DNA of 40,000 bases, taken from NCBI GenBank assembly GCA_052400685.1, contig JBQTGJ010000020.1; one strand, written 5' to 3'. The DNA comes from Geofilum sp. OHC36d9 (GTDB taxonomy: Bacteria; Bacteroidota; Bacteroidia; Bacteroidales; Marinilabiliaceae). Under the pieces are notes generated by a model. It did no database searches, was not told where the DNA came from, and saw only the letters and a list, made by a program, of their open reading frames with translations. The stretch's first letter is position 1, and the number at the start of each line of letters is the position of its first letter. Of this stretch, positions 16,882 to 30,395 are shown piece by piece. Both the position numbers and the translations under genes were made by a program.

Positions 16882-17491
16882 TATTATGAATTTTGCCCAT
16901 TTTAGGTATTATGTGAATAAGGAATTGTTGGTTTTTATATTCATCTTTCCCAGAATATTCCCTGATTCCTTCGGTACCACTACCAGAAATTTGAATTTCA
17001 CAATCTATCGCATTAAAGATTATACCATTTGATTTCCAAAAGCGATAAAGAGACAAAGCCCTTTCATAGCTAAGTTCGTAATTGCGTGAATAATTATCTT
17101 TCGATGCCATACCTTCAATTACAACAAGATACTTAATATCAAATTTCTCAAAATTCTGCTGATTTTTAAGCTCAGTTATTAAATTCGAAATAGAATTACC
17201 CACTTTAATTAAATATTTATAATATTTGGGGTTGATGTAAGAACTGCCACTCTGAAATTGAATTTGCTTATTTAATTTGAAGCGTTTGTATTCTGGTTGG
17301 TATTCAAAATACTCTTCTGGCAATTTTTGAACGGCAATATGTAATTCTTGAATTTTTACTAGTTGTTCCTTAATATCCTCGATGTTGTACTTTAAATACC
17401 CAATTGTAACGACAAATAGCACAAGCATCACAAAAAACAGACTTGTCATCAAATCAGAATAACTTATCCAAAAAATATTATCCTTTTTCAT
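16871..17491 (-). CDS. MotB/ZorB-like protein 2 (TM plug with conserved Asp plus OmpA-like C-domain)
   Basis: FWISYSDLMTSLFFVMLVLFVV (compare MotB [21 protein letters not shown]). C-terminal NYELSYERALSLYRFWKSNGI...ISGSGTEG is OmpA-like. TAATG overlap with the upstream gene. Confidence 0.7.
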   Translation of the reverse strand: MKKDNIFWISYSDLMTSLFFVMLVLFVVTIGYLKYNIEDIKEQLVKIQELHIAVQKLPEEYFEYQPEYKRFKLNKQIQFQSGSSYINPKYYKYLIKVGNSISNLITELKNQQNFEKFDIKYLVVIEGMASKDNYSRNYELSYERALSLYRFWKSNGIIFNAIDCEIQISGSGTEGIREYSGKDEYKNQQFLIHIIPKMGKIHNNEE

Positions 17492-18210
17492 TAATTCGAT
17501 CTATTTTGGACTTTCGGAATAATTTGAATAGAAAATCGTTTGTTATTTTCTTCTAAATTATCTCTGCATAGGCCATTAAAGCCACTACCACAAAGCATTA
17601 TTTCAGTATTGTATTTCCGCAGATCGATGTTGTTTTTGTTCCATAAATCATACACGGCTAATGCTCGCTCGAAGCTCTTTTTATAACCATATTTATTGTC
17701 AACACTATAAGATCTATCATAAGTATTTGCCATATTTCCTTCAATGACTAATAAATATGATAATTCAGGAGTTTTCATATATAGATCTTTCAGAAAATCC
17801 TCTATTTCATAGCCAATATTTATAGTAGTACTTACAAACTTTCTTTTTATAACCGACTTATTAGGTTCAAAAATTTCTTGTCCAAGTAGATCTTTAACTA
17901 GGTACTTTTTACAATTAGGAAGGTAAATAAACTTACCGCTTTCTTCTAGAGGTTTAAATTGTTCTTCAATTTTCAGTAATTTATCTTGTTGTTTTACTGT
18001 AATAATTAATTTTTCATTGGCGGTTTTAAGTTCTGTTATAAGTGTTTCTGTTTCCTGCTCTTTTTCTCTCAACTGCGTAATTAATTCTTCATTGTTAAAC
18101 ATTTGGTTTTTTAAATAACCTATTGTAACGACAAATAGCACAAGCATCACAAAAAACAGACTTGTCATCAAGTCAGAATAACTTATCCAAAAAATATTAT
18201 CCTTTTTCAT
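17491..18210 (-). CDS. MotB/ZorB-like protein 1 (TM plug, coiled-coil linker, OmpA-like C-domain)
   Basis: The N-terminal 34 aa are identical to the paralog. A coiled stretch follows (QLREKEQETETLITELKTANEKL), then KKSFERALAVYDLWNKNNI...LCGSGFNG. Confidence 0.7.
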   Translation of the reverse strand: MKKDNIFWISYSDLMTSLFFVMLVLFVVTIGYLKNQMFNNEELITQLREKEQETETLITELKTANEKLIITVKQQDKLLKIEEQFKPLEESGKFIYLPNCKKYLVKDLLGQEIFEPNKSVIKRKFVSTTINIGYEIEDFLKDLYMKTPELSYLLVIEGNMANTYDRSYSVDNKYGYKKSFERALAVYDLWNKNNIDLRKYNTEIMLCGSGFNGLCRDNLEENNKRFSIQIIPKVQNRSN

Positions 18211-18689
18211 TAATTCGACTTTAGTTCATAAATCCAGTATAAAAGAATTAGTCCAAGGTTAATTAGAATTAGTAAAAGGCCTAATAAAAAAAGGACAATT
18301 GAGGAAGGAGAAATGAAAAAGAAATAAATCAATGAAAAAATTACTAATTCGGTTATCAATTCAATTTTATTGCCAATTTGTTGTGAAAGCTGCAGGTAGC
18401 AGCAGATAGTGTACAATATAACCCATACTACAGCTATAATACTTAGTAAAATTGTACACATCTTTCCTATTACTTTTACAACAAGAGGTAATGCAACATC
18501 TGAATAAAATAATGAAAAAAGATTCGGGAGTTTAAAAAAGTCAAAGGAAGAACCACTTTCTTCAAATAAAGGATTAAAAACCGCCCCATACGTCATTAAT
18601 GAAAACCCAAGCAAAAGTATTGGGATCAAGGCAATAATTAACAAGGTTTTTTCCCAACCTTGTAATGTTTTGATAAGATTCAAACGCAT
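18210..18689 (-). CDS. Small polytopic membrane protein (about 4 TM)
   Basis: Hydrophobic segments LLIIALIPILLLGF, CTILLSIIAVVWVILYTICC, LVIFSLIYFFFI and LFLLGLLLILINLGLILLYW. Translationally coupled on both sides. Confidence 0.6.
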   Translation of the reverse strand: MRLNLIKTLQGWEKTLLIIALIPILLLGFSLMTYGAVFNPLFEESGSSFDFFKLPNLFSLFYSDVALPLVVKVIGKMCTILLSIIAVVWVILYTICCYLQLSQQIGNKIELITELVIFSLIYFFFISPSSIVLFLLGLLLILINLGLILLYWIYELKSN

Positions 18690-18690
18690 A

Positions 18691-20223
18691 TTAAAATATT
18701 TTCTTTATTACTTTAACAAGGCTAACAGAGCCATCTGACCCTTTAGAAATCACGTGTTTGGAGAAACTTCCATTTGTAGGTACTTTGCTGTTTCGTGACT
18801 GACGATTTCTTAAACCAGCCTCAATAGAACTCAATTTGTCCAACAACGATTGATTTTGCTGCATATTTTTAATGGAACTATTAATATCTTTCATCAGTTC
18901 CAAATTGTCAAGTTGGTTAAACTTTGGAATTGAATCAGAATAAGCATCTTTAAATGATTCAATATATTGAGAGGTAATATTATTCAGATTCCCTTCAATG
19001 TGTTTATAAATACTTTCCAGTTTTTCCTCGTGACTACCGGCACTTTTATACAGGTTACTGATCATTTCTTCGGTTCTGTTTTTTAAAGCATTAATAGATT
19101 CTTCAAAGTGCGATTCTACGATTCCAACAGATTTCAAGGCGGCATTTCCTGAATTTTCAATTTTATCAAAATGGGCAGAAAGAAATCTTGTTAATTGCCT
19201 TGATTCAACGAGAGTGTCATCAATACCGTTTATAACTTTATTAACATCTGATGTACGGTTGGCAAATTCCAGCAGTTGAGAAGTTATTCGCTCCATATTG
19301 GCTATGTAAGCAGAAAACTTGTTGAGAGATTCCATATTGTTTTCCAACTTCTCAAAGAGTTCTAAATTCCATTTTGAAACTTTTAGAACTTCCATATTGT
19401 CAACTTTTTCGATTACATCTTTTTGTAATTCAAGATTTTCACCTGTTTGATTCGCAGCTGTTAACACATTGTCCGAAATATTAGTTGCAACTCTCGCAAA
19501 CCTGTCTAAGCTTGCTTTTAAGCCAGAGACTCCTGTATCTTCGGCCTTTATCAACTCAGGAAGAAGCTTGGCTTGCATATAAGTTAACTGCTCATTTTTA
19601 TCTTTCTGCACAATGCGTCTGGCTTTTTTATAGGAAAAAGAAGAAAGATATGTTGTACAAGCTAACCCCGACAAACTACCGAGCATTGCAATTTTAACAC
19701 CACCGATTAAATCATTAACCCCTAAAGAAAATCCATCTCCATTTAATTCAGGCATTGAGAATAAACCGAAAATAATACCAATCATTGTTGCCGCAAGGCC
19801 TAAATAAAGAGGAAGTGTTACTGATTGCGATATCTCGTCGTCTTTAACAGCTATTTCTCTGTCAACAATATCTTTTATAATGCTAAAATTAACTGCAGCA
19901 CCATAATTATTAATGAGATAAGTATTTATTGCTTTCTTGATTTGAGAAATAACTTCATTTCTTCCTTCGGTATCAATCAAGGACAATTTTACGATGTCAT
20001 CATCTGCAATTTCAGAAAAGGATTCTTCATATTGAACATCGGTTGAATCAAAATCAACAGCCCCAATTTTTTCTTTCTCAACAAAACCAGTTCTTAGAAA
20101 TAGCTTAAATGAAAAGATGTTTTTTAATTTAGAGATATTCAAATGCACCTTGTAGGTGTGAAGTAATTGATATATAATAACTCCAACAATTATTGCTATT
20201 TCTATTTTATGCCAAAGATTCAT
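18691..20223 (-). CDS. MotA/ExbB/TolQ-family channel protein with long C-terminal helical tail (ZorA-like architecture)
   Basis: TM1 is IEIAIIVGVIIYQLL. A ~110-aa loop follows, then LPLYLGLAATMIGIIFGLFSM...GVKIAMLGSLSGLACTTYLSSF (compare ExbB/TolQ PxxGLxGTVxGIxxxF...GIxxALxxTxxGL). The remaining ~300 aa are E/K/L/N/S-rich and predicted helical. Confidence 0.6.
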   Translation of the reverse strand: MNLWHKIEIAIIVGVIIYQLLHTYKVHLNISKLKNIFSFKLFLRTGFVEKEKIGAVDFDSTDVQYEESFSEIADDDIVKLSLIDTEGRNEVISQIKKAINTYLINNYGAAVNFSIIKDIVDREIAVKDDEISQSVTLPLYLGLAATMIGIIFGLFSMPELNGDGFSLGVNDLIGGVKIAMLGSLSGLACTTYLSSFSYKKARRIVQKDKNEQLTYMQAKLLPELIKAEDTGVSGLKASLDRFARVATNISDNVLTAANQTGENLELQKDVIEKVDNMEVLKVSKWNLELFEKLENNMESLNKFSAYIANMERITSQLLEFANRTSDVNKVINGIDDTLVESRQLTRFLSAHFDKIENSGNAALKSVGIVESHFEESINALKNRTEEMISNLYKSAGSHEEKLESIYKHIEGNLNNITSQYIESFKDAYSDSIPKFNQLDNLELMKDINSSIKNMQQNQSLLDKLSSIEAGLRNRQSRNSKVPTNGSFSKHVISKGSDGSVSLVKVIKKIF

Positions 20224-20224
20224 A

Positions 20225-21601
20225 TTAGTAGAGTTTTATCTTAATTTTATTTTCAGTGTCAATCATCCAACGATCATTTAAACGAGTCACTTTGCCGCTA
20301 TGAATTAGTCCGATTTTTGTGGCAGTAGATGAATTTGTAATGTTTTCGATATCGCAAACAGGCTTTAAGTAGGATTCTAAGCGGTTAATTGCCCTTTGGT
20401 CTCTATCGCCCGACAAATAAAACAGTTCCCCTTTGGTTGAAGATTCTTTAAATTCAATCTTGAAATATTTTTTCCCATCATTTGAAATCTCACCATTTGA
20501 AATTAGAAAGCTGCCATCACTTTCGGGCATTGAAAAATAAATCTTTTTTATTTGTTTTGTTGGCTGGTCTAGAGCGCTTTCTGATAGGGCATTATATGTA
20601 TCTGCTTTACCCTCATCCTTCGAAATAAATTTTTGTTCAACCCTTTTTTTTAAATCAGCGTTTTCTTCCGAAAGTTCTTTCGTTTTCTTTTCTAAGGATG
20701 ATATTTTTTTTCGTAGATCGTCAATACCGCTACCTCTGTTGGTATTAGCTAATTGACATTCCTTTTTATACTTGCTTTTTTGTTTTTGTAAGCAAAATAC
20801 AACTCTTAAATATCCAAATAAGAATCGTTTATTATTTCCCGCTTGTGAATAATCATTGTATTTCCGTTCATCTTCTTCATTGACAATCGACTTAATCTTG
20901 TTTTTGGTAATTAAAAAAATAAAAAGCCCTCCAATCATAAGCCCTGTAATGAAAACACCTCCGTATAAAAAAATTGTATTACTAAGAATCTGATTTGTAT
21001 TTCTTTTTTGGGTTAATTTTGGTTGTAGGTCTTTTTTAGGTATTTTATCTTCGATCTTAACAGATTCCGATTTATTTTCAATTAATTTTTTTGCTTCTTG
21101 ATGAAATGCAGAAAGAGATTGATTATACTTAAGAACTATCTCCTTTGTTTTTTCGTTCCAATAGTCATGATTATTGTTGCGACCTGGAATTACAGTTACT
21201 AAATCATTACTACCTGGTTTTGTACATCTAAAAAAAGACTCATTCAAAGGTATTTTACTCTCAAAATTCTTTTTCAGAGGGACGAAAAGTTTCTTTCTGG
21301 TTCCACTCCAGTAATTCTCATTTAAGAACTTTGAAATTTGAGTGAAAGTTGGTAGTGTTTCTTTTAAATCAATATCTTGAATAAAAGCTTCGAAGTATTT
21401 GTCTTTACCAACTATTTCATTTTTTGCAGCTGATTCGCCCACAGTAGTGATATAATCTTGCATATATGCATAGGTCGCTTCAATTACACCTCTCTTAGCC
21501 CAATAATTATATGCTTCTGTTGAATCTTTGAACAGGCTTTGTGCAAATGAACCTTGCACAAAGCCTGTTAATATGATAAAAAATATTAGTCTTTTATTCA
21601 T
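20225..21601 (-). CDS. Bitopic membrane protein: signal peptide, ~190-aa exo-domain, TM, cytoplasmic coiled coil plus C-domain
   Basis: MNKRLIFFIILTGFVQGSFAQ; TM IFLYGGVFITGLMIGGLFIFLI; DDLRKKISSLEKKTKELSEENADLKKRVEQ. No recognisable enzymatic motif. Confidence 0.55.
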   Translation of the reverse strand: MNKRLIFFIILTGFVQGSFAQSLFKDSTEAYNYWAKRGVIEATYAYMQDYITTVGESAAKNEIVGKDKYFEAFIQDIDLKETLPTFTQISKFLNENYWSGTRKKLFVPLKKNFESKIPLNESFFRCTKPGSNDLVTVIPGRNNNHDYWNEKTKEIVLKYNQSLSAFHQEAKKLIENKSESVKIEDKIPKKDLQPKLTQKRNTNQILSNTIFLYGGVFITGLMIGGLFIFLITKNKIKSIVNEEDERKYNDYSQAGNNKRFLFGYLRVVFCLQKQKSKYKKECQLANTNRGSGIDDLRKKISSLEKKTKELSEENADLKKRVEQKFISKDEGKADTYNALSESALDQPTKQIKKIYFSMPESDGSFLISNGEISNDGKKYFKIEFKESSTKGELFYLSGDRDQRAINRLESYLKPVCDIENITNSSTATKIGLIHSGKVTRLNDRWMIDTENKIKIKLY

Positions 21602-24600
21602 CGTCCGTTTTCTTTTCAGCGAGTGCGTAAGACAATTTATTTAGTATTCCTATTAAAGGATAAAAGAACAAAGTTTCTTCTATTTTAGAGTCTGGCTTTT
21701 TGTAGTATGCTTGTATTCCCCTTACAAGAAAATCATTTATTCCTGATTCTCTTTCTTGTTGAAAAATTGAATAGGCATCAGTCTCTATAATGTATTTTGA
21801 CTCTATATTAATGGTTTGAATATACTCATCTAAGATTGAATAAAAATCTTTGATGGTTTCTTCAATTTGTAATTTGTGTGTGTCATTCAATTCTCCATAT
21901 TTTGGAATGTTTTGGACATCCACTTCTCTATCAAACACTTTTCCCCAGCTATCATCCTGAGTACCACCAATCCAGAATTTAATTGGTGATTCTTTTATGC
22001 TGTCGTCAAGATTAGCTTTTAATGCTCCTTTACAAGTAACTTCTTTAGGAATAGATGACAGTTTTATTTGTAGTTTTTCTCTTGATTTTTCGCTGTAAAC
22101 ACTTTCAAAAATGTATTGAAACAAATTTGAAATATTTTTCAAATTTGAGGATGCATCAATAATTGATGCTGATTTAGACGCTGTACCACTTAATAAGACA
22201 TGTTTAGGAATACCAATACCTGATTTTTTAAGCAGGTTCGCAGAATAGTAAGCGATCGCTCCATAAAACACGAATATTGAAAGTTTCAACCTATTATTCT
22301 TTTGCAGTAACCTTGTATAGCTAAATTCATTTGACTCATCTTTTTCCAGTGCAAAAAGGAAACTACTAAAATCGGAGGAGTTTTTTCTGGTGTTTAATAT
22401 ATTGTCTAAAATTCCTTTTAATTGTCCAAATTCATTTTTATCAGTGCTTTTAATCGCATCTAAAGCTGCATCTTTAAATGTCTTAACAAAGCCATTTCTA
22501 TCCGAGTTGTTCTTAAATTCATCGGAAGGATACCCATCTCCAAAAATAGCATTGCCGGCAAACTTAAAAGAAGAGATCAGTTTTGCTTTTTTATCATCTT
22601 CATCAAACACCGCAATATCAGATGAACCACCACCAATGTCAATTGATAAGCTTAAACCAGCTACAGAGGATTTGTAATATAAATAAGGAGCAATACTCTC
22701 AGGTATGCTTTTTATTCCGGTATCCGAATTTTGTTTAAACGCCCTTTGATAAACATTCTTCCAGAGTCTGGAAAACACTTCCAGTTCTCCTTCATCCATA
22801 CTTACCGGATAAAACCAGGTAATTGTTGAATTTGCAGGGCTACCACCTAATTGAAGTGTTTTGTAAAATGCAATTGTCGTTAAAAATTCTAAATACGATT
22901 CAACTTTCTTTTCATCAATTGTATTTGCATAATTGCTCCATTTTAACTGAGTGTTTAGTTCAAGGTAGTTTGGCACACTTCGTTTTTCAAGTAGCAAATA
23001 ATTATTAACCTGTCTGATAATATCTACTTTGTTATTAAAATCAACGTCTTTATTATGAACAAGGGCAGACCTTAGAGGAAACCTTAATCCGTTACCATTT
23101 GAAAACACAAATGGTAAAATTTCTTGCTCAAAAGTATTCTCATTTTCAATATACACCGGGTCAATACCACTTGCGTTTCTGTTAATTAGTGATTGCCAAA
23201 GAGGTTTAGTTGGTGTGTTGTCAAGAGAAATTGAATCATTATCTCCAAGTTTGTATTCAATATGGGTATTTGTTGTACCGAAATCAATCGCAAAATTTAC
23301 TTTGGATGTTCCTTTGGCTGTATTCATTATTGGTATAACAAACCCAGTTTTTGAGTTTACAGAAATACCAAATGCCTCAGGCTGATTTTCTACTTTAAAA
23401 TATTTACTGACTAATTCACCTCCACCTCCGGGATTTCTCGTAATTGCAGAATTAGTCAATTGTTGCTCACCATTTTTAAATGTGGTTAAACTTATTTTAT
23501 TTGATTCATCTAAACTGTAATCAAGTAAGCCGATGATATGTGTTAATTCGAAATCATTTGATTTTAAAAATGGAAAAATAGCTAAATGCACATCTAATTT
23601 CTCAATATTTTTGTCAGCTGTAGAATATTGCCTCTTAAATATAATTTCGCCCCCTTTAACCGGTATTTTAAGCTCAGCATCCACATTTCCACCAGCGCGT
23701 TCTTTTAGGCTTAAATATTGATTCGCTTTTTCTGCCTTAAAATATTTAAAAAATGTTGATGATAAAGGCAAAAGGTGTTTTTTTGAACCGCACGTAATAA
23801 ACTTTGAATCGTCAATTGGGTATGGCAATTCAATAATTTTATCTTCAAAAAAATTGCCAATTGTCAACCAATAATACGGGTCATTTTGTATCGGTAATTT
23901 TGATTTATTTGGTACATCTGTGTTTTTATAGACAATCTGTGTTTTTTCATCCCACAAGATACCTTTAGTTGTATATGTCCATTTCTTTGAAAATGGATAT
24001 TGGGGTAAAATAAGAGGCTTAACTTCATTGTACAAAAAATCAGACTTGATAACAAAATCACTTTCAGTAGAGATGCTCCCTGTATCAGTTTCCTGAACGC
24101 CAAGTTTTATATTCAACACTTCACAAATATCATTTTCATTCTCTAATACTGTGCAAGCTTTGTATTCTGTCAGATGGCTAGCTTCTATATCTGTAATTTT
24201 CCGATTTAAGTCTCCACTCAAATGTTCTTTTACCTTTTCCAGATACTCGTAAACTTCGGGGAAATAATGAGCAAATTTAGGCTGTTTAGCTAAGGTGTAA
24301 AAGTATTCAATAAAAGACGATTCTCTTTCTGACAAAGGCGCATACTCGTTATCAAAAAGTTTGTCTTGCCCTATGCGAATATCCAACTTACTTGTTACTT
24401 TTCTTACGTCAGGAGAAGCGAAAAACAAGGTGGCAGGAGAAGTGCCGCCAATAATGTTGTTCGTTTCTTTATTCAGAATAAAATACAATCTATTTGTTTT
24501 CTCAAAATTGTATAATACTTCATTACCTATTTCGTCCTCTTCTACACTATCCTGATTCCAAAATAATTGAAGCGTATCAACGTATTTTTTGTGTATTTTG

Positions 24601-24944
24601 TTACCATTCTCTTTTAACTCTTTAAATCTATCTTTAGGACTCCAGGCAATAATGCGAATTTTACTGCCGAATTTTGGAGAAGTAAAGAAAAGTTGAGCGA
24701 CATCAAGCGCATCAGACACCAATTTATGGTGGGCTGTATTGCCTTTTATTTTATTCTCTGAAACCCACTTAAACGCAGATTTTACCAAATCAATTGTTGC
24801 AAAGGGTGTCGGAATAGATGTTGCAACGTCTTTACCTTCTGTTTTTATTGTCTTCAGTTGGTCAGAAGTAATTATCCCACTTTTAAACCACCCTGTTTCT
24901 TCTGTGATACCTCCTTCGTGGAGTCTGAATATTTTTTTAGCCAT
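21594..24944 (-). CDS. Large protein (1116 aa) with actin/Hsp70-like (ASKHA) ATPase domain in its C-terminal half
   Basis: Phosphate-1 NFAIDFGTTNTHIEY (nt 23265-23285 encode DFGTTNT). Phosphate-2 LSIDIGGGSSDIAVF (nt 22617-22640). Adenosine-like HVLLSGTASKS. The ~540-aa N-terminal region has no motif I recognise. Confidence 0.65.
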   Translation of the reverse strand: MAKKIFRLHEGGITEETGWFKSGIITSDQLKTIKTEGKDVATSIPTPFATIDLVKSAFKWVSENKIKGNTAHHKLVSDALDVAQLFFTSPKFGSKIRIIAWSPKDRFKELKENGNKIHKKYVDTLQLFWNQDSVEEDEIGNEVLYNFEKTNRLYFILNKETNNIIGGTSPATLFFASPDVRKVTSKLDIRIGQDKLFDNEYAPLSERESSFIEYFYTLAKQPKFAHYFPEVYEYLEKVKEHLSGDLNRKITDIEASHLTEYKACTVLENENDICEVLNIKLGVQETDTGSISTESDFVIKSDFLYNEVKPLILPQYPFSKKWTYTTKGILWDEKTQIVYKNTDVPNKSKLPIQNDPYYWLTIGNFFEDKIIELPYPIDDSKFITCGSKKHLLPLSSTFFKYFKAEKANQYLSLKERAGGNVDAELKIPVKGGEIIFKRQYSTADKNIEKLDVHLAIFPFLKSNDFELTHIIGLLDYSLDESNKISLTTFKNGEQQLTNSAITRNPGGGGELVSKYFKVENQPEAFGISVNSKTGFVIPIMNTAKGTSKVNFAIDFGTTNTHIEYKLGDNDSISLDNTPTKPLWQSLINRNASGIDPVYIENENTFEQEILPFVFSNGNGLRFPLRSALVHNKDVDFNNKVDIIRQVNNYLLLEKRSVPNYLELNTQLKWSNYANTIDEKKVESYLEFLTTIAFYKTLQLGGSPANSTITWFYPVSMDEGELEVFSRLWKNVYQRAFKQNSDTGIKSIPESIAPYLYYKSSVAGLSLSIDIGGGSSDIAVFDEDDKKAKLISSFKFAGNAIFGDGYPSDEFKNNSDRNGFVKTFKDAALDAIKSTDKNEFGQLKGILDNILNTRKNSSDFSSFLFALEKDESNEFSYTRLLQKNNRLKLSIFVFYGAIAYYSANLLKKSGIGIPKHVLLSGTASKSASIIDASSNLKNISNLFQYIFESVYSEKSREKLQIKLSSIPKEVTCKGALKANLDDSIKESPIKFWIGGTQDDSWGKVFDREVDVQNIPKYGELNDTHKLQIEETIKDFYSILDEYIQTINIESKYIIETDAYSIFQQERESGINDFLVRGIQAYYKKPDSKIEETLFFYPLIGILNKLSYALAEKKTDDE

Positions 24945-24945
24945 T

Positions 24946-26439
24946 TTAAACTTGTTTTAAAAGGTTGTTTTTACTTAATACATTTTCAGTTGATTTACCG
25001 AAAACCTTAATAAGTGTTGTGTGTCTTTTCTCAGGAGTGGATCTAAAGCCTATTTCAGTAATCAACTTACAGTTTTCAACATCAATAGATTTAAAACTTT
25101 TATTTCCTTTTCCTTCATCACCTTTTACTAAGTTCAAAGCATCATCCCAGTTTACTTTATTATATGGACTAAAAGCGGGTTTATTATCTTCCATTTCATT
25201 TAGCCATTCAATAAAATGCTTATTAAAAGCATCAATCTGAATTTTATATTCCGAACTATTAAAATATTGTTTGTCTAAAAATGAATTCTCGGACTTTTTA
25301 ACCAGCTTAATATTGCTTTTTGTCCACCTTGAAACATTAATAGCTTTTGGCAAACCAATATTCAGGTATTCGGAGAACAGTTTATATTTGGTCAATGGTT
25401 TAGCAATATTTTTTTGATTATTTAGGTTCAAATCCCCAAAAACGATTGATTCTGTGTCATTTTCAATTCCAAACTCTTTTACCTGAGTTTCATTACTGGT
25501 CTTATCAATATTTTCACAAAAGTCAAAAATTGCTAATGCACCTGCCATTTCTAAAAAGTGAGCATTATTCTTTTGCTCCTTTCCTCCAACAGCATATTCA
25601 AAGTGTTTAGCATTTCCTCTATTTCCAATAAAATAAAGAGAATTAATTTTATTCTGCTTAATAATTGTTCTGTTGTAATAATCGATGGCAATTTTGGCCT
25701 TATCCTCAAATGAATCGGAGTTAATTTCATCTTTTTTGTTTAGTGCAAAATAAGGTAGATAGGTTATGCCTCCAATTGGCGCTTCCTTAATTTTTGCACT
25801 GTTAGGCAAATCGGAATTTCCTCTTAAATTTTTTAATAGTAAAGGGAATCCTGCCGCACCTGTACCACCAAATATTGAGTTAATAATAAAAACGGCATCA
25901 TCGTCATTAAATGTTTGTCCAAATCGTTTAAAGTCATCCGAATCGGTAAATTGGTTTAAAACAATGGCGCCCATATTGGGATTTCCTTTAAAGCCAACAT
26001 TCAAATTGGAGTTCAAATTTTTGTCAGAATATAAAAGCCTGGTAAAATTTTTATCGTCTTTTGAATTTTTGTAATCATCATCAAGTGTATTAAAACCAAT
26101 GTACTGTCCAAATGTACTTTGATCAACATCATTTAAACTGAACTGAAAATAATCTGAATTAACTACCGATGATTTATTTGCTAACTCATTAACAGTTTTT
26201 ATTTCCTGAGAAAAGAAATCATCGGGTTGGTCGACTTGGTTTCTTATTTGTTGATATAACTTTAAAATATCTTTGGTTCTGTTCAGATCACCATTGCTTG
26301 TATCAGGGTCAATAATAATTGGAATAACCGTATCAAAATCATTTTTAAATTTGCATCCAGAAGCTAATAACATTGTTAATGCCTTTAAAACTCGAGAACC
26401 TGTCCCTCCAATTCCGAATATGTATATTTTTTTTGCCAT
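24946..26439 (-). CDS. Divergent tubulin/FtsZ-superfamily GTPase-like protein
   Basis: N-terminal KKIYIFGIGGTGSRVLKAL (nt 26395-26415 encode GIGGTGS; compare FtsZ GVGGGGxNA). IIIDPDTSNGDL (compare NTD). T4-like FIINSIFGGTGAAGFPLLL (nt 25849-25872; compare GGGTGTGAAP). No T7 NxDxxD loop found by eye. Confidence 0.6.
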   Translation of the reverse strand: MAKKIYIFGIGGTGSRVLKALTMLLASGCKFKNDFDTVIPIIIDPDTSNGDLNRTKDILKLYQQIRNQVDQPDDFFSQEIKTVNELANKSSVVNSDYFQFSLNDVDQSTFGQYIGFNTLDDDYKNSKDDKNFTRLLYSDKNLNSNLNVGFKGNPNMGAIVLNQFTDSDDFKRFGQTFNDDDAVFIINSIFGGTGAAGFPLLLKNLRGNSDLPNSAKIKEAPIGGITYLPYFALNKKDEINSDSFEDKAKIAIDYYNRTIIKQNKINSLYFIGNRGNAKHFEYAVGGKEQKNNAHFLEMAGALAIFDFCENIDKTSNETQVKEFGIENDTESIVFGDLNLNNQKNIAKPLTKYKLFSEYLNIGLPKAINVSRWTKSNIKLVKKSENSFLDKQYFNSSEYKIQIDAFNKHFIEWLNEMEDNKPAFSPYNKVNWDDALNLVKGDEGKGNKSFKSIDVENCKLITEIGFRSTPEKRHTTLIKVFGKSTENVLSKNNLLKQV

Positions 26440-26449
26440 TGTGTTTTAT

Positions 26450-26899
26450 TTAAAAAGGTAAGTGAATTTGGATTTTGCTGAATTGCTTTAATATTAAGCT
26501 ATAAATAAAACCAACAACAATGCCGAGCAAACCATTGAATAAAGCATATTCAAATGGTAATGTTTTGGCAAATTCTTCATAACCTGATTCAGGATATGCT
26601 AATGCATCAATCAGATCCTGGTTGTTTGATAAGAATATTTCATTATTCGAAATACCCCAAGAAATGCCTCCAGTTAACAGGGATGCAATAATTAACCATA
26701 AAAACCAATGCCGGAATTTCCCATAAGGAGATTTCCATAAATAATAGAAAGCAGCGAACAATATTAATGGAACGAGTACAAAAGTCAAGCCTAGTAGAGT
26801 ATAGCCCCCGGAATCATATAAAGTGTTAAAAATCAACCCAAATTGAGGGTCGTACAGGTTAAACAAAGACTCATAAATAGTTGCGAAAAGGTCATTCAT
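26450..26899 (-). CDS. Small membrane protein (about 3 TM)
   Basis: Hydrophobic segments GYTLLGLTFVLVPLILFAAFYYLW, WFLWLIIASLLTGGISW and LFNGLLGIVVGFIYSLIL. Confidence 0.55.
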   Translation of the reverse strand: MNDLFATIYESLFNLYDPQFGLIFNTLYDSGGYTLLGLTFVLVPLILFAAFYYLWKSPYGKFRHWFLWLIIASLLTGGISWGISNNEIFLSNNQDLIDALAYPESGYEEFAKTLPFEYALFNGLLGIVVGFIYSLILKQFSKIQIHLPF

Positions 26900-26905
26900 A
26901 ATACT

Positions 26906-28198
26906 TTATTTAATAAGTTCAAACTTAAAGGTGACAATGTTAGATTCTTGGTTTTTATATTGATAAGCTTCACTAATTGCATTAATTAGGAACTTAAAAC
27001 CGAAAGTATGAGAGGTGTCTCCGACAATATCACTTTCATCATCACTGTTTGTTTCCACAATCCAATTTGGAATCGTGTTTTTTAAAGAAATTTCGAGTTG
27101 ACATAATGGACTTCTCTCTGTCCCAACCGTGATTAGATGAGTCGGGGTGAAGTTTAAACCAAAAAGTTTTATATCACCTATTTCAGAAACAGCTTTAATT
27201 GAGAAATTTGAATTATCACATATATAATTATCAACTGATGTGAGATAGGAATCTGAAAATGGCAACGCAGAATAATCTGTTGCTAATGTAAAATGGAAAC
27301 CTTGTCCCTTTCTATCTGATTTTACGCTAACCAATTTATTTCTATCTCTTTTGTCAAATCTAAAATCACCGACTTTGTTATGTGCAACGGCCTGATACGG
27401 AACCTCCAATTCACTGTTTTTTAAGAATCTAGCGACATCAGAAAAGCCTTTAAGGCTTTTAATATAATCATCGTTGAAATATTCATTTAACAATTCGGTT
27501 TCACCAAAAATCCAAACATAAAAAGGTCTGTCTTGCGATAATATTTTGACACCACCTGTAACAGGGAAATATTTTCCATCAAAATGAGATTTCAACTTTA
27601 TGATAATTGTTTGTAAATCACCTGTATTTAATCTTTCAATAAAACGGCTTCTTGTTTCACGTCCTTCTGTTGATAGCGCATTCATTGGCGCTTGAGGTTT
27701 ACCAATATCGTAAATAGCATCTGAAATTAGAATTGAAACAGTATCGTTTTTTGCGCGAGATAGAGCTAATTGAAACATTAAGTTGAGATTACTTTTAGTA
27801 ACGTCACCACAATTAAAACCTGTCAAATTTAATTTGTCTTTCAGGTAAGCCGGATTATTTCCAATATTTGTAATTTTTATTTTTTGCCCACCATTAACAA
27901 AATAAAATTCCCGTTTTGTATTTTCTTCCGCAAAACGAGGTTTTTCTGCTAATTCTGAAACAACGTCAACATATTCAGTAAAACCATTAACGTATCCAAA
28001 CATACTTCCTGAATTTTCTAAATAAAATACTGCTTTCTCCACATTCCTTTCCATAGAAGCGTTGGACGCATTTTTAACAAAACCTATTTGGTTTTCTGTT
28101 TGTTTTTTGGTTTCAGAATTACTTAATCTTTCACTTCTATTTTTACAGCTTGAAGTAAAAATCAAAAGAATAAGAATCAGGTAAAAGTAGAATCTCAT
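26906..28198 (-). CDS. Lipoprotein with von Willebrand A-like domain (degenerate MIDAS)
   Basis: Lipobox LLIFTSSC. AVFYLENSGSMFGY (compare DxSGS with E for D), GDVTKSNLNLMFQLAL (MIDAS Thr position), VSILISDAIYD (compare TDG). The first gene of the operon. Confidence 0.45.
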   Translation of the reverse strand: MRFYFYLILILLIFTSSCKNRSERLSNSETKKQTENQIGFVKNASNASMERNVEKAVFYLENSGSMFGYVNGFTEYVDVVSELAEKPRFAEENTKREFYFVNGGQKIKITNIGNNPAYLKDKLNLTGFNCGDVTKSNLNLMFQLALSRAKNDTVSILISDAIYDIGKPQAPMNALSTEGRETRSRFIERLNTGDLQTIIIKLKSHFDGKYFPVTGGVKILSQDRPFYVWIFGETELLNEYFNDDYIKSLKGFSDVARFLKNSELEVPYQAVAHNKVGDFRFDKRDRNKLVSVKSDRKGQGFHFTLATDYSALPFSDSYLTSVDNYICDNSNFSIKAVSEIGDIKLFGLNFTPTHLITVGTERSPLCQLEISLKNTIPNWIVETNSDDESDIVGDTSHTFGFKFLINAISEAYQYKNQESNIVTFKFELIK

Positions 28199-28849: not shown

Positions 28850-29395
28850 ATCAGTTGCGAGTTGAAATCGGGCTGATCTTGCTTTGAGGCTGGGGCCCTT
28901 TCAGGGCGATAAAACAACGGGTGATCATACCACAAGGCGATGCCCTGGGCTAACGCTACAAGGCTTTCAGCCTTGATGGGGGCTTGCAAGGAAAGGACAA
29001 CCTCTGCGTTTGCTTACTTTTAAATCGGATATCTACGGGTGGCAACTCACTTTTGCCGGACTTCACAGGCCTTGAATTTGAGCTTTATATTTTAAACACT
29101 TGGTTGATGGACAGACTCTATTTAGTGTTTGTCTATAAAGTCAACTTCTGCGTTATGCTTGTCATAAAAACAGTCATTTACGAAAAGTAAACTCCTTGAT
29201 TTTTATGACTTCACAGGCCTTGAATTTGAGCTTTATATTTTAAACACTTGGTTGATGGACAGGCTCTATTTACATGAGCGGCCTTTTCAATGCGAAATTT
29301 CTGATTCGGGATGGGATTCCAGGGCGTTGCCGTTGGGCTGAAGTTATTTGCACTTTAAGTGCGGTGAGTGGCAAAAGTATGATTTTACGAATGTA
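28850..29395 (+). repeat. Mosaic repeat cluster X+M1+M1+M2 (copy R, right flank of the AT-rich operon)
   Basis: 28888-28978 matches 1364-1455 (X). 29029-29125 and 29207-29392 match 15638-15853. M1 is tandemly duplicated (the GACTTCACAGGCCTTGAATTTGAGCTTTATATTTTAAACACTTGGTTGATGGACAG block occurs twice). Confidence 0.75.
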
Positions 29396-30395
29396 AAAAG
29401 AGTCTGCTTCTAAAGTGGAGCTTCTGCGTTGAACTGACTTTTTTGTGATATCGGATTTTATTTTCTTCAATTACAATTGTGACGGTATTACAATGGCTTG
29501 GATACGTCACCGTAAAAGCTTGCAAGTCGATCAAATGAATGTGAGCCTGCTTGTTGTGGTAGAAACCACTGCATTCAATTATTCCTAAAGGCGAATAGCG
29601 CGTTACTTTAAGCAGCGACTTAACCGTTTCGATATGAAACCAGGAACCGGCTCCTTCACCTGCCAGCCATTGTGCATTTTCAGGTATGGAGGAATGTTTT
29701 TCGGGCTGTGGTAATGTCGATTTCAAAAACTCTCTATGAGGTTTTAGAGACGGACAAACGGGTTGTATACCACTCAGGTTTTCAATAACCGTTTGATTTC
29801 CGAAGGCATGTACATTGTTCATCGGCGTTGGTGTGAGCGGGACCATGAAATTCAACCGGAAAAGCTGTTTAAAATTGAGTTTCCCTGCCCTCAACACCGA
29901 ATTTACAAAACGGGAACAGTTGCTCCCCCTGTATCGGAAAGGGCCATAAGGAATAGGACTTTTAGCCTGTAATTGCAACGCTTTGGCATAAGCCTTTTTA
30001 AAATTGATTGGGGCATACGAGGCATGTAATTTCCCTTCGCCATGGCATGCCGGGTTTTGTTGAAGTTCAATCAATATCTCGTTGAAATTCAACAGCATTT
30101 TGCCATTCGTGGATATCCATGGTAAAGTGTGTACGGTTAAATCGGGGTCGGTAATTGCCCCACGTGCCCTTCCGTGCTGAAAGGGTGAATGATACCGCCC
30201 AAAATCGAAATAAAAACATTTTTTATGTTGACTGTCGACCAATACCAGAGCGGCATGTCCGGCCTGGTAATAATTATTTTTGCTGATACCTATACCTGAA
30301 GTGATCCATTCGTACCAGCCCCCAGCCTGTTTACAGTATGTTTCGGGCCAGGCAATGGCGATGGCAAATCCTGTTTGTTTATTATTCGTGGTCAT
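29385..30395 (-). CDS. Conserved hypothetical protein (336 aa)
   Basis: Long ORF with an ATGA overlap to the NRDE gene. Its last ~15 codons and its stop lie inside the repeat, so the native C-terminus may differ. Confidence 0.65.
   Translation of the reverse strand: MTTNNKQTGFAIAIAWPETYCKQAGGWYEWITSGIGISKNNYYQAGHAALVLVDSQHKKCFYFDFGRYHSPFQHGRARGAITDPDLTVHTLPWISTNGKMLLNFNEILIELQQNPACHGEGKLHASYAPINFKKAYAKALQLQAKSPIPYGPFRYRGSNCSRFVNSVLRAGKLNFKQLFRLNFMVPLTPTPMNNVHAFGNQTVIENLSGIQPVCPSLKPHREFLKSTLPQPEKHSSIPENAQWLAGEGAGSWFHIETVKSLLKVTRYSPLGIIECSGFYHNKQAHIHLIDLQAFTVTYPSHCNTVTIVIEENKIRYHKKVSSTQKLHFRSRLFLHS

Follow-up and report, generated by a model that had tools for sequence, protein, structure and literature searches.

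The 1116-residue protein and its family

We analysed a 40,000-nucleotide stretch of contig JBQTGJ010000020.1 of Geofilum sp. OHC36d9 (GenBank assembly GCA_052400685.1), referred to below as the window, which carries a ten-gene cluster on its minus strand. The cluster includes a gene for a 1116-residue protein with a predicted ATPase core of the ASKHA (actin/Hsp70-type) fold and, directly upstream of it, a gene for a divergent tubulin-like protein. An initial reading, made from the letters and their open reading frames (ORFs) alone and here called the sequence-only reading, had described the 1116-residue protein as an FtsA/MreB/Hsp70-like ATPase core fused to a long N-terminal region, and had proposed that it is a dedicated actin-like partner of the tubulin-like protein, analogous to FtsA-FtsZ. 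That observation is confirmed by the analysis presented below, and the interpretation is supported in part.

The gene (positions 21594..24944; stop codon 21594-21596) is an ATG-to-TAA ORF, and a stop-free run of its 1116 codons would arise by chance with a probability of ~1e-41 (33% GC; stop-codon probability of 0.081 per codon). Its translation is 100% identical to an NCBI entry, 'hypothetical protein ACT3CD_14815 [Geofilum sp. OHC36d9]', which places the window in the genome of a marine member of Bacteroidota. The Kyte-Doolittle mean over 19 residues peaks at 1.25 and no transmembrane segment is apparent, as had earlier been remarked for the N-terminal extension; the protein is soluble and cytoplasmic. 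It has no significant match in Pfam, NCBIfam or PADLOC, and a phmmer search against the PDB returned zero matches. A profile of 29 family sequences, when searched against the PDB, reached BeeR (PDB identifier 8r2n) with an E-value of 0.14 and MreB with an E-value of 0.79, the alignment being confined to the DIGGG phosphate-2 motif.

Relatives of the protein fall into 1770 clusters at 50% identity when an E-value of 1e-3 or better is required, and 906 of these are found at 1e-30 or better. Among the best 150 cluster representatives, nearly all are 1080-1220 amino acids long and align end to end. Of 185,579 species genomes, 542 or more contain the family; these are nearly all from Bacteroidota and include those of the gut genera Parabacteroides and Prevotella. 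Four near-identical or typical clusters of the Bacteroidota type were encountered on metagenome-assembled genomes labelled Gracilibacteria, Hyphomicrobiales, Bacilli and Methanomethylophilaceae, and the locus labelled Bacilli has match coordinates and scores identical throughout to those of another locus labelled Bacteroidales; such labels most likely reflect binning contamination and not transfer across phyla. No family member was found in the phage collection and only six IMG/VR contigs hold one, which together argue that this is not a phage gene, and the plasmid search returned one Prevotella megareplicon, which is unannotated.

A chance motif match or a spurious ORF can practically be discounted. 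Two values could be cited in its favour, viz., the non-significant E-values of the Pfam FtsA match (0.086) and of the profile match in the PDB (0.14), but it is excluded by the structural model, its 477 structural matches, the invariant residues, the number of clusters and the improbability of an ORF of this length. The protein belongs to a large new family in which a unique N-terminal module precedes an ASKHA ATPase core, and which has neither a name nor a Pfam or NCBIfam model despite its ~1770 clusters and its occurrence in at least 542 species genomes.

The ASKHA ATPase core

An AlphaFold2 model built on the family alignment has a mean predicted local distance difference test score (pLDDT) of 83.3 and a predicted TM-score of 0.73. 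A Foldseek search initiated with this model against the PDB found 477 matches at an E-value of 1e-3 or better. The best match is the nucleotide-binding domain (NBD) of DnaK (PDB identifier 8w1m) with an E-value of 1.5e-8, and MreB from several species, BeeR and actins are among the other leading matches. All of these have a probability of 1.0, and their TM-scores relative to the target are 0.4-0.57. Based on these structural matches and the weak profile matches, residues 546-1010 (21915..23309) are assigned to the ASKHA fold of the actin/Hsp70 clade, which confirms what the sequence-only reading had anticipated.

Conservation was examined in an alignment of the protein with 141 representatives of the 50%-identity clusters, each 29-46% identical to it. 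The residues D554, G556, K668, W669, E749, D769, G771, G772, D776 and G920 are invariant across these 142 sequences, and T557 is retained in 140. The three ASKHA motifs recognized at the outset are indeed present in the expected order, at residues 552-564, 767-780 and 915-925. The phosphate-1 motif AIDFGTTNTHIEY (23253..23291) contains the invariant D554 and G556 together with T557, N559 and H561, which are each conserved in at least 95% of the sequences. The phosphate-2 motif SIDIGGGSSDIAVF (22605..22646) harbors the invariant D769, G771, G772 and D776; its family consensus is D-I-G-G-G-T-T-D and is aligned by the profile with the DIGGGT of BeeR and MreB. It is preceded by a Connect-1-like motif, PESIAPYLYY (residues 748-757; 22674..22703), with E749 in all 142 sequences, S750 in 135 and P753 in 141. 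In the adenosine-motif region HVLLSGTASKS (22170..22202), S919 (137/142) and G920 (142/142) form a conserved pair at the expected position, with SG replacing the usual GG, and P913 (141/142) lies shortly before it. Judged by its pattern, the D-x-G-G-G-T-x-D segment, with a spacing of seven residues between its Asp residues and with a preceding Glu and Lys, corresponds to the catalytic constellation of Hsp70 and actin. Since this constellation is conserved throughout the family, the core very probably works as an ATPase of the actin/Hsp70 clade.

D554 and D769 are separated by 215 residues and the next motif interval is 150. The sequence-only reading had regarded about 200 residues between phosphate-1 and phosphate-2 as an insertion. 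However, the equivalent spacing is ~186 in E. coli DnaK, where the second interval is 146, and ~143 in actin, so most of the stretch is ordinary subdomain IB together with the remainder of IA, and perhaps 30-70 of its residues are additional. The core is followed by a helical C-terminal extension (residues 1011-1116; 21597..21914), whose helices at 1021-1109 have a pLDDT of 82-94 and which ends in a conserved EETLFFYPLIG helix; F1093 and F1094 are kept in 140 of the 142 sequences.

The N-terminal half

A separate model of residues 1-548 (pLDDT 84) shows three parts, viz., a peptide at residues 1-45, an alpha/beta region at ~46-410 and an all-beta region at ~411-545. The N-terminal peptide (24810..24944) has a pLDDT below 50 in both models, yet W19, I33 and S43-A49 are conserved at 95% or more among the 141 representatives. 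The last of these stretches, the SIPTPFA motif (residues 43-49; 24798-24818), extends slightly past the peptide segment. AlphaFold could not place this motif, which lies ~40 residues past the point at which the protein is joined to its tubulin-like partner in the natural fusions described below. By analogy, it may loosely be likened to the short conserved C-terminal peptide with which FtsZ binds its partners.

The second part (residues 46-410; 23715..24809) is specific to the family. It is modelled mostly with a pLDDT of 80-95 and contains the invariant D81, D132, G166-x-T-S-P170 and R207. A Foldseek search found no structural relative of it in the PDB or BFVD, and this region of ~365 residues is a candidate for a new fold. 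The third part (residues 411-545; 23310..23714) is modelled as an all-beta immunoglobulin (Ig)-like sandwich with 11 consecutive strands. Weak Foldseek matches to Ig domains, most of them over ~130-230 columns, include KIT (E-value 8e-4) and CD22 (2.5e-3, probability 1.0). These likely come from residues ~411-545, the Foldseek tables being without query coordinates.

Residues 1-100 and 351-400 are conserved as highly as the ATPase motifs over the same alignment. The N-terminal half had earlier been viewed as a region fused to the core, but it is full-length in essentially every relative, over more than 900 sequence clusters, and is part of one fixed architecture and not an accreted domain.

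Association with a tubulin-like GTPase

The gene immediately upstream (24946..26439) encodes a 497-residue protein of the tubulin/FtsZ superfamily, a putative GTPase of the Tubulin_2/FtsZl1-like type, which matches the Pfam Tubulin model with an E-value of 1.1e-5, under the gathering score. A single base separates its TAA stop from the ATG of the ASKHA gene. The two genes had been seen to adjoin in the sequence-only reading, but in the reverse direction, the tubulin-like gene being in fact upstream. All of 30 orthologs of the tubulin-like protein match PF00091 (Tubulin) and 27 match PF13809 (Tubulin_2), every score being below gathering, and the orthologs share the invariant loops GIGGTG (T1-like), GFKGNPNMG (T3-like) and SIFGGTGAAG (T4-like). 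In unfused loci the protein is 463-521 residues long. Pfam represents with Tubulin_2 the FtsZ-like family of Makarova & Koonin, which was still functionally uncharacterised in 2023 (PMC9871819).

The association is not confined to the window. Using the family alignment, we found 79 genome loci, 74 of which have at least 2 kb of upstream sequence, and the tubulin-like gene lies upstream of the ASKHA gene in 71 of the 74. Homologs thus occur mostly with this neighbour. The median gap is 3 nt, and it is 30 nt or less in 62 of the 71 loci; those with larger gaps appear frameshifted or carry an insertion. One of the three loci without the tubulin-like gene has an integrase gene directly upstream in its place.

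Furthermore, the two proteins are found as a single polypeptide in at least seven diverged protein clusters and in two genome assemblies. These fusions consist of a complete tubulin-like protein, a short linker and then the ASKHA protein from residue ~4. Their ASKHA parts are 39-56% identical to the 1116-residue protein, which argues that the fusions are diverged and maintained, and are not sequencing artefacts. Because natural fusions join the two proteins at residue ~4, they constitute strong evidence that the tubulin-like and ASKHA proteins would form a physical complex with an interface at the ASKHA N-terminus. Judged from gene order and fusions, the ASKHA protein is the obligate partner of the tubulin-like GTPase. 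Thus, the dedicated partnership proposed earlier is borne out by the 71 loci and the fusions, but the likeness to FtsA is supported neither by Foldseek and Pfam nor by the C-terminal tail and the gene context. Of the candidate roles suggested earlier for the N-terminal half, sensor or adaptor, that of an adaptor towards the tubulin-like protein is plausible, given that the fusion junction at residue ~4 is followed by the conserved disordered peptide.

A conserved gene cluster with a variable 3' gene

The first gene of the cluster (26906..28198) encodes a 430-residue lipoprotein with the lipobox FTSSC and a vWA/MIDAS-like motif (E61-N-S-G-S65 ... D160). E61, S63, S65 and D160 are invariant in 30 orthologs and the pattern E-N-S-x-S ... 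D resembles a MIDAS; the vWA identity rests on this motif, there being no Pfam or PDB profile match. Between the lipoprotein and the tubulin-like gene lies the gene of a 149-residue protein (26450..26899) with three transmembrane segments by hydropathy, and a 149-aa gene occupies the same position in loci L080-L085.

The ASKHA gene is followed by that of a 458-residue bitopic membrane protein (20225..21601) with a signal or transmembrane segment at residues 5-24, a transmembrane segment at 205-234 and a cytoplasmic coiled coil. Its start and the stop of the ASKHA gene share 8 nt (ATGAATAA), as had been noted from the sequence, and through this overlap the gene is predicted to be translationally coupled to the ASKHA gene. 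The length of the bitopic protein varies between loci from 205 to 460 residues.

Next in the cluster is the gene of a 510-residue protein (18691..20223), a putative stator subunit of the ZorA/MotA-like type whose helical tail is long, recognized by ortholog and profile matches. PF01618 (MotA_ExbB) is matched by 7 of 26 orthologs, and orthologs also match PADLOC ZorA models with a best E-value of 8.7e-8. A search of the PDB with the ortholog profile gave E-values ranging from 3.3e-4 to 0.27 and reached the transmembrane region of ZorA-type structures (PDB identifiers 8vvn, 3.3e-4, and 8qyh, 0.027). About 300 helical residues follow the transmembrane core. The 159-residue polytopic membrane protein encoded next (18210..18689), identified by hydropathy, was detected in few loci only.

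Two tandem ZorB/MotB-like paralogs of 239 and 206 residues (16871..18210) possess the plug/transmembrane Asp motif YSDLMT. They match PADLOC ZorB with E-values of 1.5e-16 and 1.8e-12 and NCBIfam ZorB1 at ~4e-6, far under the curated cutoff. An OmpA-type peptidoglycan-binding domain (Pfam OmpA, 1.8e-5) is present in the 206-residue copy, and the upstream 239-residue copy, in which there is a coiled-coil linker, lacks a significant OmpA match. The first 34 residues are common to both copies, in line with a 118-nt repeat (17382-17499 and 18101-18218) that is 94% identical, and the copies are divergent beyond it; in most other loci the ZorB-like gene is not duplicated. The cluster ends with a gene for a 258-residue exported trypsin/HtrA-like serine protease (16105..16881) with the lipobox SLSGC and a Pfam Trypsin_2 match of 1.5e-24.

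Across loci the genes follow the order lipoprotein, small transmembrane protein, tubulin-like protein, ASKHA protein, transmembrane protein, ZorA-like and ZorB-like. The lipoprotein was detected in 63 of 66 loci, the ZorA-like protein in 54 of 58 and the ZorB-like protein in 49 of 58. The gene after ZorB is the variable one: it encodes a trypsin-like protease in 22 of 58 loci, and in several others the gene found there is unrelated. In seven loci this position is taken by other hydrolases, viz., a trypsin-SNase fusion, an SNase with an M50B peptidase, a transglutaminase-like protease, an EEP nuclease/phosphatase or a retropepsin-like protease. Inspection of N-termini revealed lipoprotein signal peptides in the protease of the window and in the transglutaminase-like and EEP proteins, and none in the retropepsin-like ORF as called.

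Genomic surroundings and mobility

In the window, the cluster forms an island of 31-33% GC, compared with ~38-50% in the adjacent flanks, and the GC content of the operon is under that of both flanks in 35 of 40 loci. Direct repeats of ~215 nt (15638-15853 and 29177-29392), which are 99% identical over 186 nt, exactly bracket the ten genes. A partial copy of the repeat is seen at 29029-29124 and a diverged one at 953-1138, and the repeat has no match in Rfam. The bracketing copies could represent attL and attR where an element has integrated, or a dispersed repeat that served for recombination. Tyrosine integrase or excisionase-like genes neighbour the cluster in loci L080, L082 and L058, and transposase genes are found in L083. 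An IS1595-family transposase gene of L083 (16249-17283 of that locus) lies inside the cluster itself, between the ZorA-like gene and the genes for the small membrane protein and the ZorB-like protein, which indicates that the cluster tolerates or suffers the insertion of insertion sequences (IS) in some genomes. Taken together, the cluster spans the envelope, and its seven-gene core is conserved, horizontally mobile and usually followed by a hydrolase that varies with the lineage.

Other features of the window lie outside the island. An IS21-family element (12720-15199) is located directly beside it, with istA at 12805-14373, istB at 14404-15129 and 42-nt imperfect inverted repeats at 12720-12761 and 15158-15199. 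Two adjoining group II introns occupy 9675-12122 on the minus strand. One is complete, with a reverse transcriptase/maturase ORF at 10402-11652 and Rfam matches to domains D1-D4 at 12008-12122 and to domain V/VI at 10302-10377; the other is a short copy without an ORF (D1-D4 at 10133-10255, domain V/VI at 9675-9750). Repeats at 9814-10014 and 11691-11892, 71-73% identical, are apparently flanks shared by both introns. On the other side, just outside the island, a gene on the minus strand (29385-30395) encodes a TseH-like type VI secretion effector domain (Pfam, 4.7e-42) fused to DUF6695, and is followed by TANGO2, DinB_2 and peroxiredoxin genes.

Functional interpretation

We favor, at about an even chance, the view that the cluster is a Zorya-like mobile conflict system, directed against phages or other invaders, that employs a cytoskeletal-type NTPase pair. 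It is suggested by the combination of a constant core, a variable hydrolase and a mobile context. Constant cores with variable effectors are a pattern of conflict systems (Kaur et al. 2020, PMC7159879). Zorya itself detects perturbation of the envelope by means of a 5:2 proton motor anchored to peptidoglycan, and the ZorA tail signals to cytoplasmic partners (PMC11946911). By analogy, the stator encoded here might be a peptidoglycan-anchored, proton-driven 5:2 complex that senses envelope perturbation and signals via its cytoplasmic tail, in which case the GTPase-ATPase pair would be the cytoplasmic responders in place of ZorC and ZorD. The N-terminal module of the 1116-residue protein would hold the tubulin-like subunit, and binding and hydrolysis of ATP by the ASKHA core would switch or polymerise the complex. 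The coupled bitopic protein would probably pass the resulting state on to the periplasmic side, the site of action of the vWA-like lipoprotein and the hydrolase. The fullest version of this proposal is a new type of machine, an immune system mobile through Bacteroidota and built with both cytoskeletal folds, in which a proton-driven, wall-anchored ZorAB-like rotary stator would control the tubulin-like GTPase and the ASKHA ATPase. These two, in some cases one polypeptide, would co-assemble by way of the N-terminal module of the ATPase, and their assembly, dependent on nucleotide, would gate exported nuclease or protease lipoproteins against invaders; taken as a whole this version is unlikely.

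Several observations weigh against a Zorya-like conflict system. Direct PADLOC matches in the cluster are limited to the ZorB-like proteins. The ZorA-like protein of the window itself has no Pfam or PADLOC match, and the similarity to ZorA is weak and confined to the transmembrane region. The assignment of K668 and E749 as the catalytic Lys and Glu of Hsp70, with E749 equivalent to E171/E175, follows motif order, without superposition. A Pfam scan of 150 ORFs flanking 20 loci returned mostly housekeeping genes, with GmrSD in two, and revealed no consistent defence neighbours or classic defence-island signature. A role in defence is consequently argued from the mobility, the likeness to ZorAB and the variable hydrolases. 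Moreover, exported lipoprotein 'effectors', unlike the cytoplasmic ZorC and ZorD, fit a function in the envelope or in secretion no less readily.

Such an envelope function underlies the main rival explanation, which joins the FtsA-FtsZ analogy of the sequence-only reading to the proposal of Makarova & Koonin for FtsZl1 operons. The cluster would then encode a housekeeping-type, membrane-remodelling cytoskeleton for vesicle formation, envelope repair or change of shape, with a tubulin-like GTPase polymerising at the inner membrane, the ASKHA protein tethering or organising it like FtsA, and the stator and OmpA-like protein anchoring it to the wall. The tight gene coupling and the fusions agree with it, as do the largely housekeeping flanks and the predominance of membrane and envelope proteins among the products of the cluster. 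Also in its favor are the Deinococcus operons in which FtsZl1, MotA and OmpA genes follow the same order, and the giant Hsp70-like protein encoded next to FtsZl1 and vWA genes in Magnetospirillum (PMC2875224 supplement). It is nevertheless unlikely in view of the patchy, island-like distribution, the GC content under that of the flanks in 35 of 40 loci, the frequent integrase and IS neighbours, the variation of the 3' hydrolase gene with lineage and the lack of FtsA-specific features in structure, Pfam matches and C-terminal tail. Furthermore, with detection in 542 or more of the 185,579 species genomes, nearly all of them in Bacteroidota, this is not a core function.

A variant of the favored Zorya-like system, differing in the molecular action, treats the ASKHA protein as an Hsp70-like chaperone or switch. 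Its core would be a clamp gated by nucleotide, serving to remodel or take apart the polymer of the tubulin-like protein or other products of the cluster, and clients would be bound by the beta-sandwich region of the N-terminal half. The motif spacings of 215 and 150 are near the 186 and 146 of DnaK, DFGTTNT is nearly the same as the DLGTTNS of DnaK, the D-x-G-G-G-T-x-D motif has Hsp70 spacing, and the top Foldseek match is the DnaK NBD; MreB, BeeR and actin, however, score almost like DnaK and the fold does not discriminate among them. Tubulin and HSP70 have each been predicted in conflict systems, though in separate sub-systems (PMC7159879). With only ~100 helical residues C-terminal to the NBD in place of an Hsp70 substrate-binding domain and lid, and with no DnaJ or GrpE gene found in the cluster using Pfam and NCBIfam, this mode of action seems rather improbable. 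We consider quite improbable a further alternative, in which the stator-powered complex and its NTPases form a machine that exports, positions or activates the 3' lipoprotein hydrolase at the surface, for nutrient scavenging or inter-bacterial antagonism. Motors of 5:2 stoichiometry do drive envelope transport in Ton, Tol and GldLM/type IX secretion. The 3' products are proteases or nucleases, of which those of the window and the transglutaminase-like and EEP proteins have lipoprotein signal peptides, and a TseH-like toxin gene adjoins the island in the window. But only a minority of the loci, 22 of 58 in the case of the trypsin-like gene, were seen to have a hydrolase gene downstream, unrelated genes take its place in several, no outer-membrane channel or secretin-like component was found in the Pfam scan, and the ordinary Lol or Sec routes would suffice for lipoproteins.

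The pair links the two great cytoskeletal NTPase folds in an obligate and sometimes fused form outside cell division, and the uncharacterised FtsZl1/Tubulin_2 proteins gain a concrete partner and a testable context. If the Zorya analogy is true, ZorAB-like sensors would operate with a wholly different class of downstream partners, and signalling by the ZorA tail could be tested in a second, independent system.

Comparison with known systems

The ASKHA core resembles the NBD of DnaK, MreB, BeeR and actin in fold, in the phosphate-1 DxGTTN and phosphate-2 DxGGGTxD motifs, in motif order and in the conserved acidic and Lys residues. It differs from these proteins, with which it has only ~12-15% identity, in having ~545 additional N-terminal residues, an all-helical IIB region, a helical C-terminal extension of ~100 residues and F/L-S-G instead of G-G at the adenosine motif. 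A canonical Hsp70 chaperone was considered and rejected, as the beta-sandwich is N-terminal here, ~100 helical residues follow the core, and none of the ten cluster genes has a Pfam HSP70, DnaJ or GrpE match. Membership of the FtsA family was likewise rejected: PF14450 is matched with 13.6 bits (E-value 0.086) against a cutoff of 31.8, and FtsA is not among the top 50 Foldseek matches in the PDB. The protein has no FtsA-type tail of a flexible linker and an amphipathic helix, its helix at 1094-1109 being packed (pLDDT 82-90) and only the last four residues disordered. The gene is located outside the division (dcw) cluster, in a low-GC, repeat-bracketed island, and its neighbour is Tubulin_2-like and not FtsZ. 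The arrangement does recall FtsA-FtsZ in that a gene for an actin-fold ATPase stands next to one for a tubulin-fold GTPase and the two evidently work together. However, the GTPase gene comes first here, the partner is without the FtsZ C-terminal domain and the two are fused in some lineages; we know of no FtsA-FtsZ fusion.

The closest described gene contexts are those of FtsZl1 operons, which also combine a divergent tubulin-like GTPase with envelope proteins. In Deinococcus, DR_0536-0540 encode a hypothetical protein, a small hypothetical protein, FtsZl1, MotA/TolQ/ExbB and OmpA, in the same order as here, and in Magnetospirillum the giant Hsp70-like amb2961 lies beside FtsZl1 and vWA genes (PMC2875224 supplement). 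An actin/Hsp70-like partner is not discussed for either context in PMC2875224, and the surroundings of its Bacteroides examples (B. caccae, 913 residues, next to a cysteine protease) differ from those seen here. FtsZl1 proteins are ~900-1100 residues long, whereas the GTPase described here has ~495 residues, lacks the coiled-coil and alpha-helical C-terminal regions and is followed instead by the 1116-residue ASKHA protein.

With Zorya, the cluster shares a putative MotA-like subunit with a long helical tail, only weakly similar to ZorA, a MotB-like subunit with a plug/Asp transmembrane segment and an OmpA-type domain, soluble partners and a mobile context. Unlike Zorya, it has no PADLOC match to ZorC, D, E, F or G, the place of these proteins is taken by a tubulin-like GTPase with an ASKHA ATPase, it includes extra membrane proteins and a periplasmic lipoprotein, and its hydrolases are exported and not cytoplasmic. 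The DO-GTPase/GAP1-N2 systems (PMC7159879) are similar in having tubulin- and HSP70-family NTPases, vWA proteins, membrane components and variable effectors, but their defining core proteins are a TRAFAC-class DO-GTPase and GAP1 and their phyletic range is Firmicutes and Actinobacteria. Tubulin and HSP70 belong to separate sub-systems there, and the HSP70 is accompanied by GrpE and DnaJ. Assignment of the cluster to these systems was rejected, since Pfam and NCBIfam detect no P-loop GTPase or similar protein in it, and GAP1, for which no library model was available, is absent as judged by architecture only. We found no description of this cluster or family in the literature, though there is partial computational precedent, and we regard the cluster as a new variant of FtsZl1/Zorya-type envelope systems.

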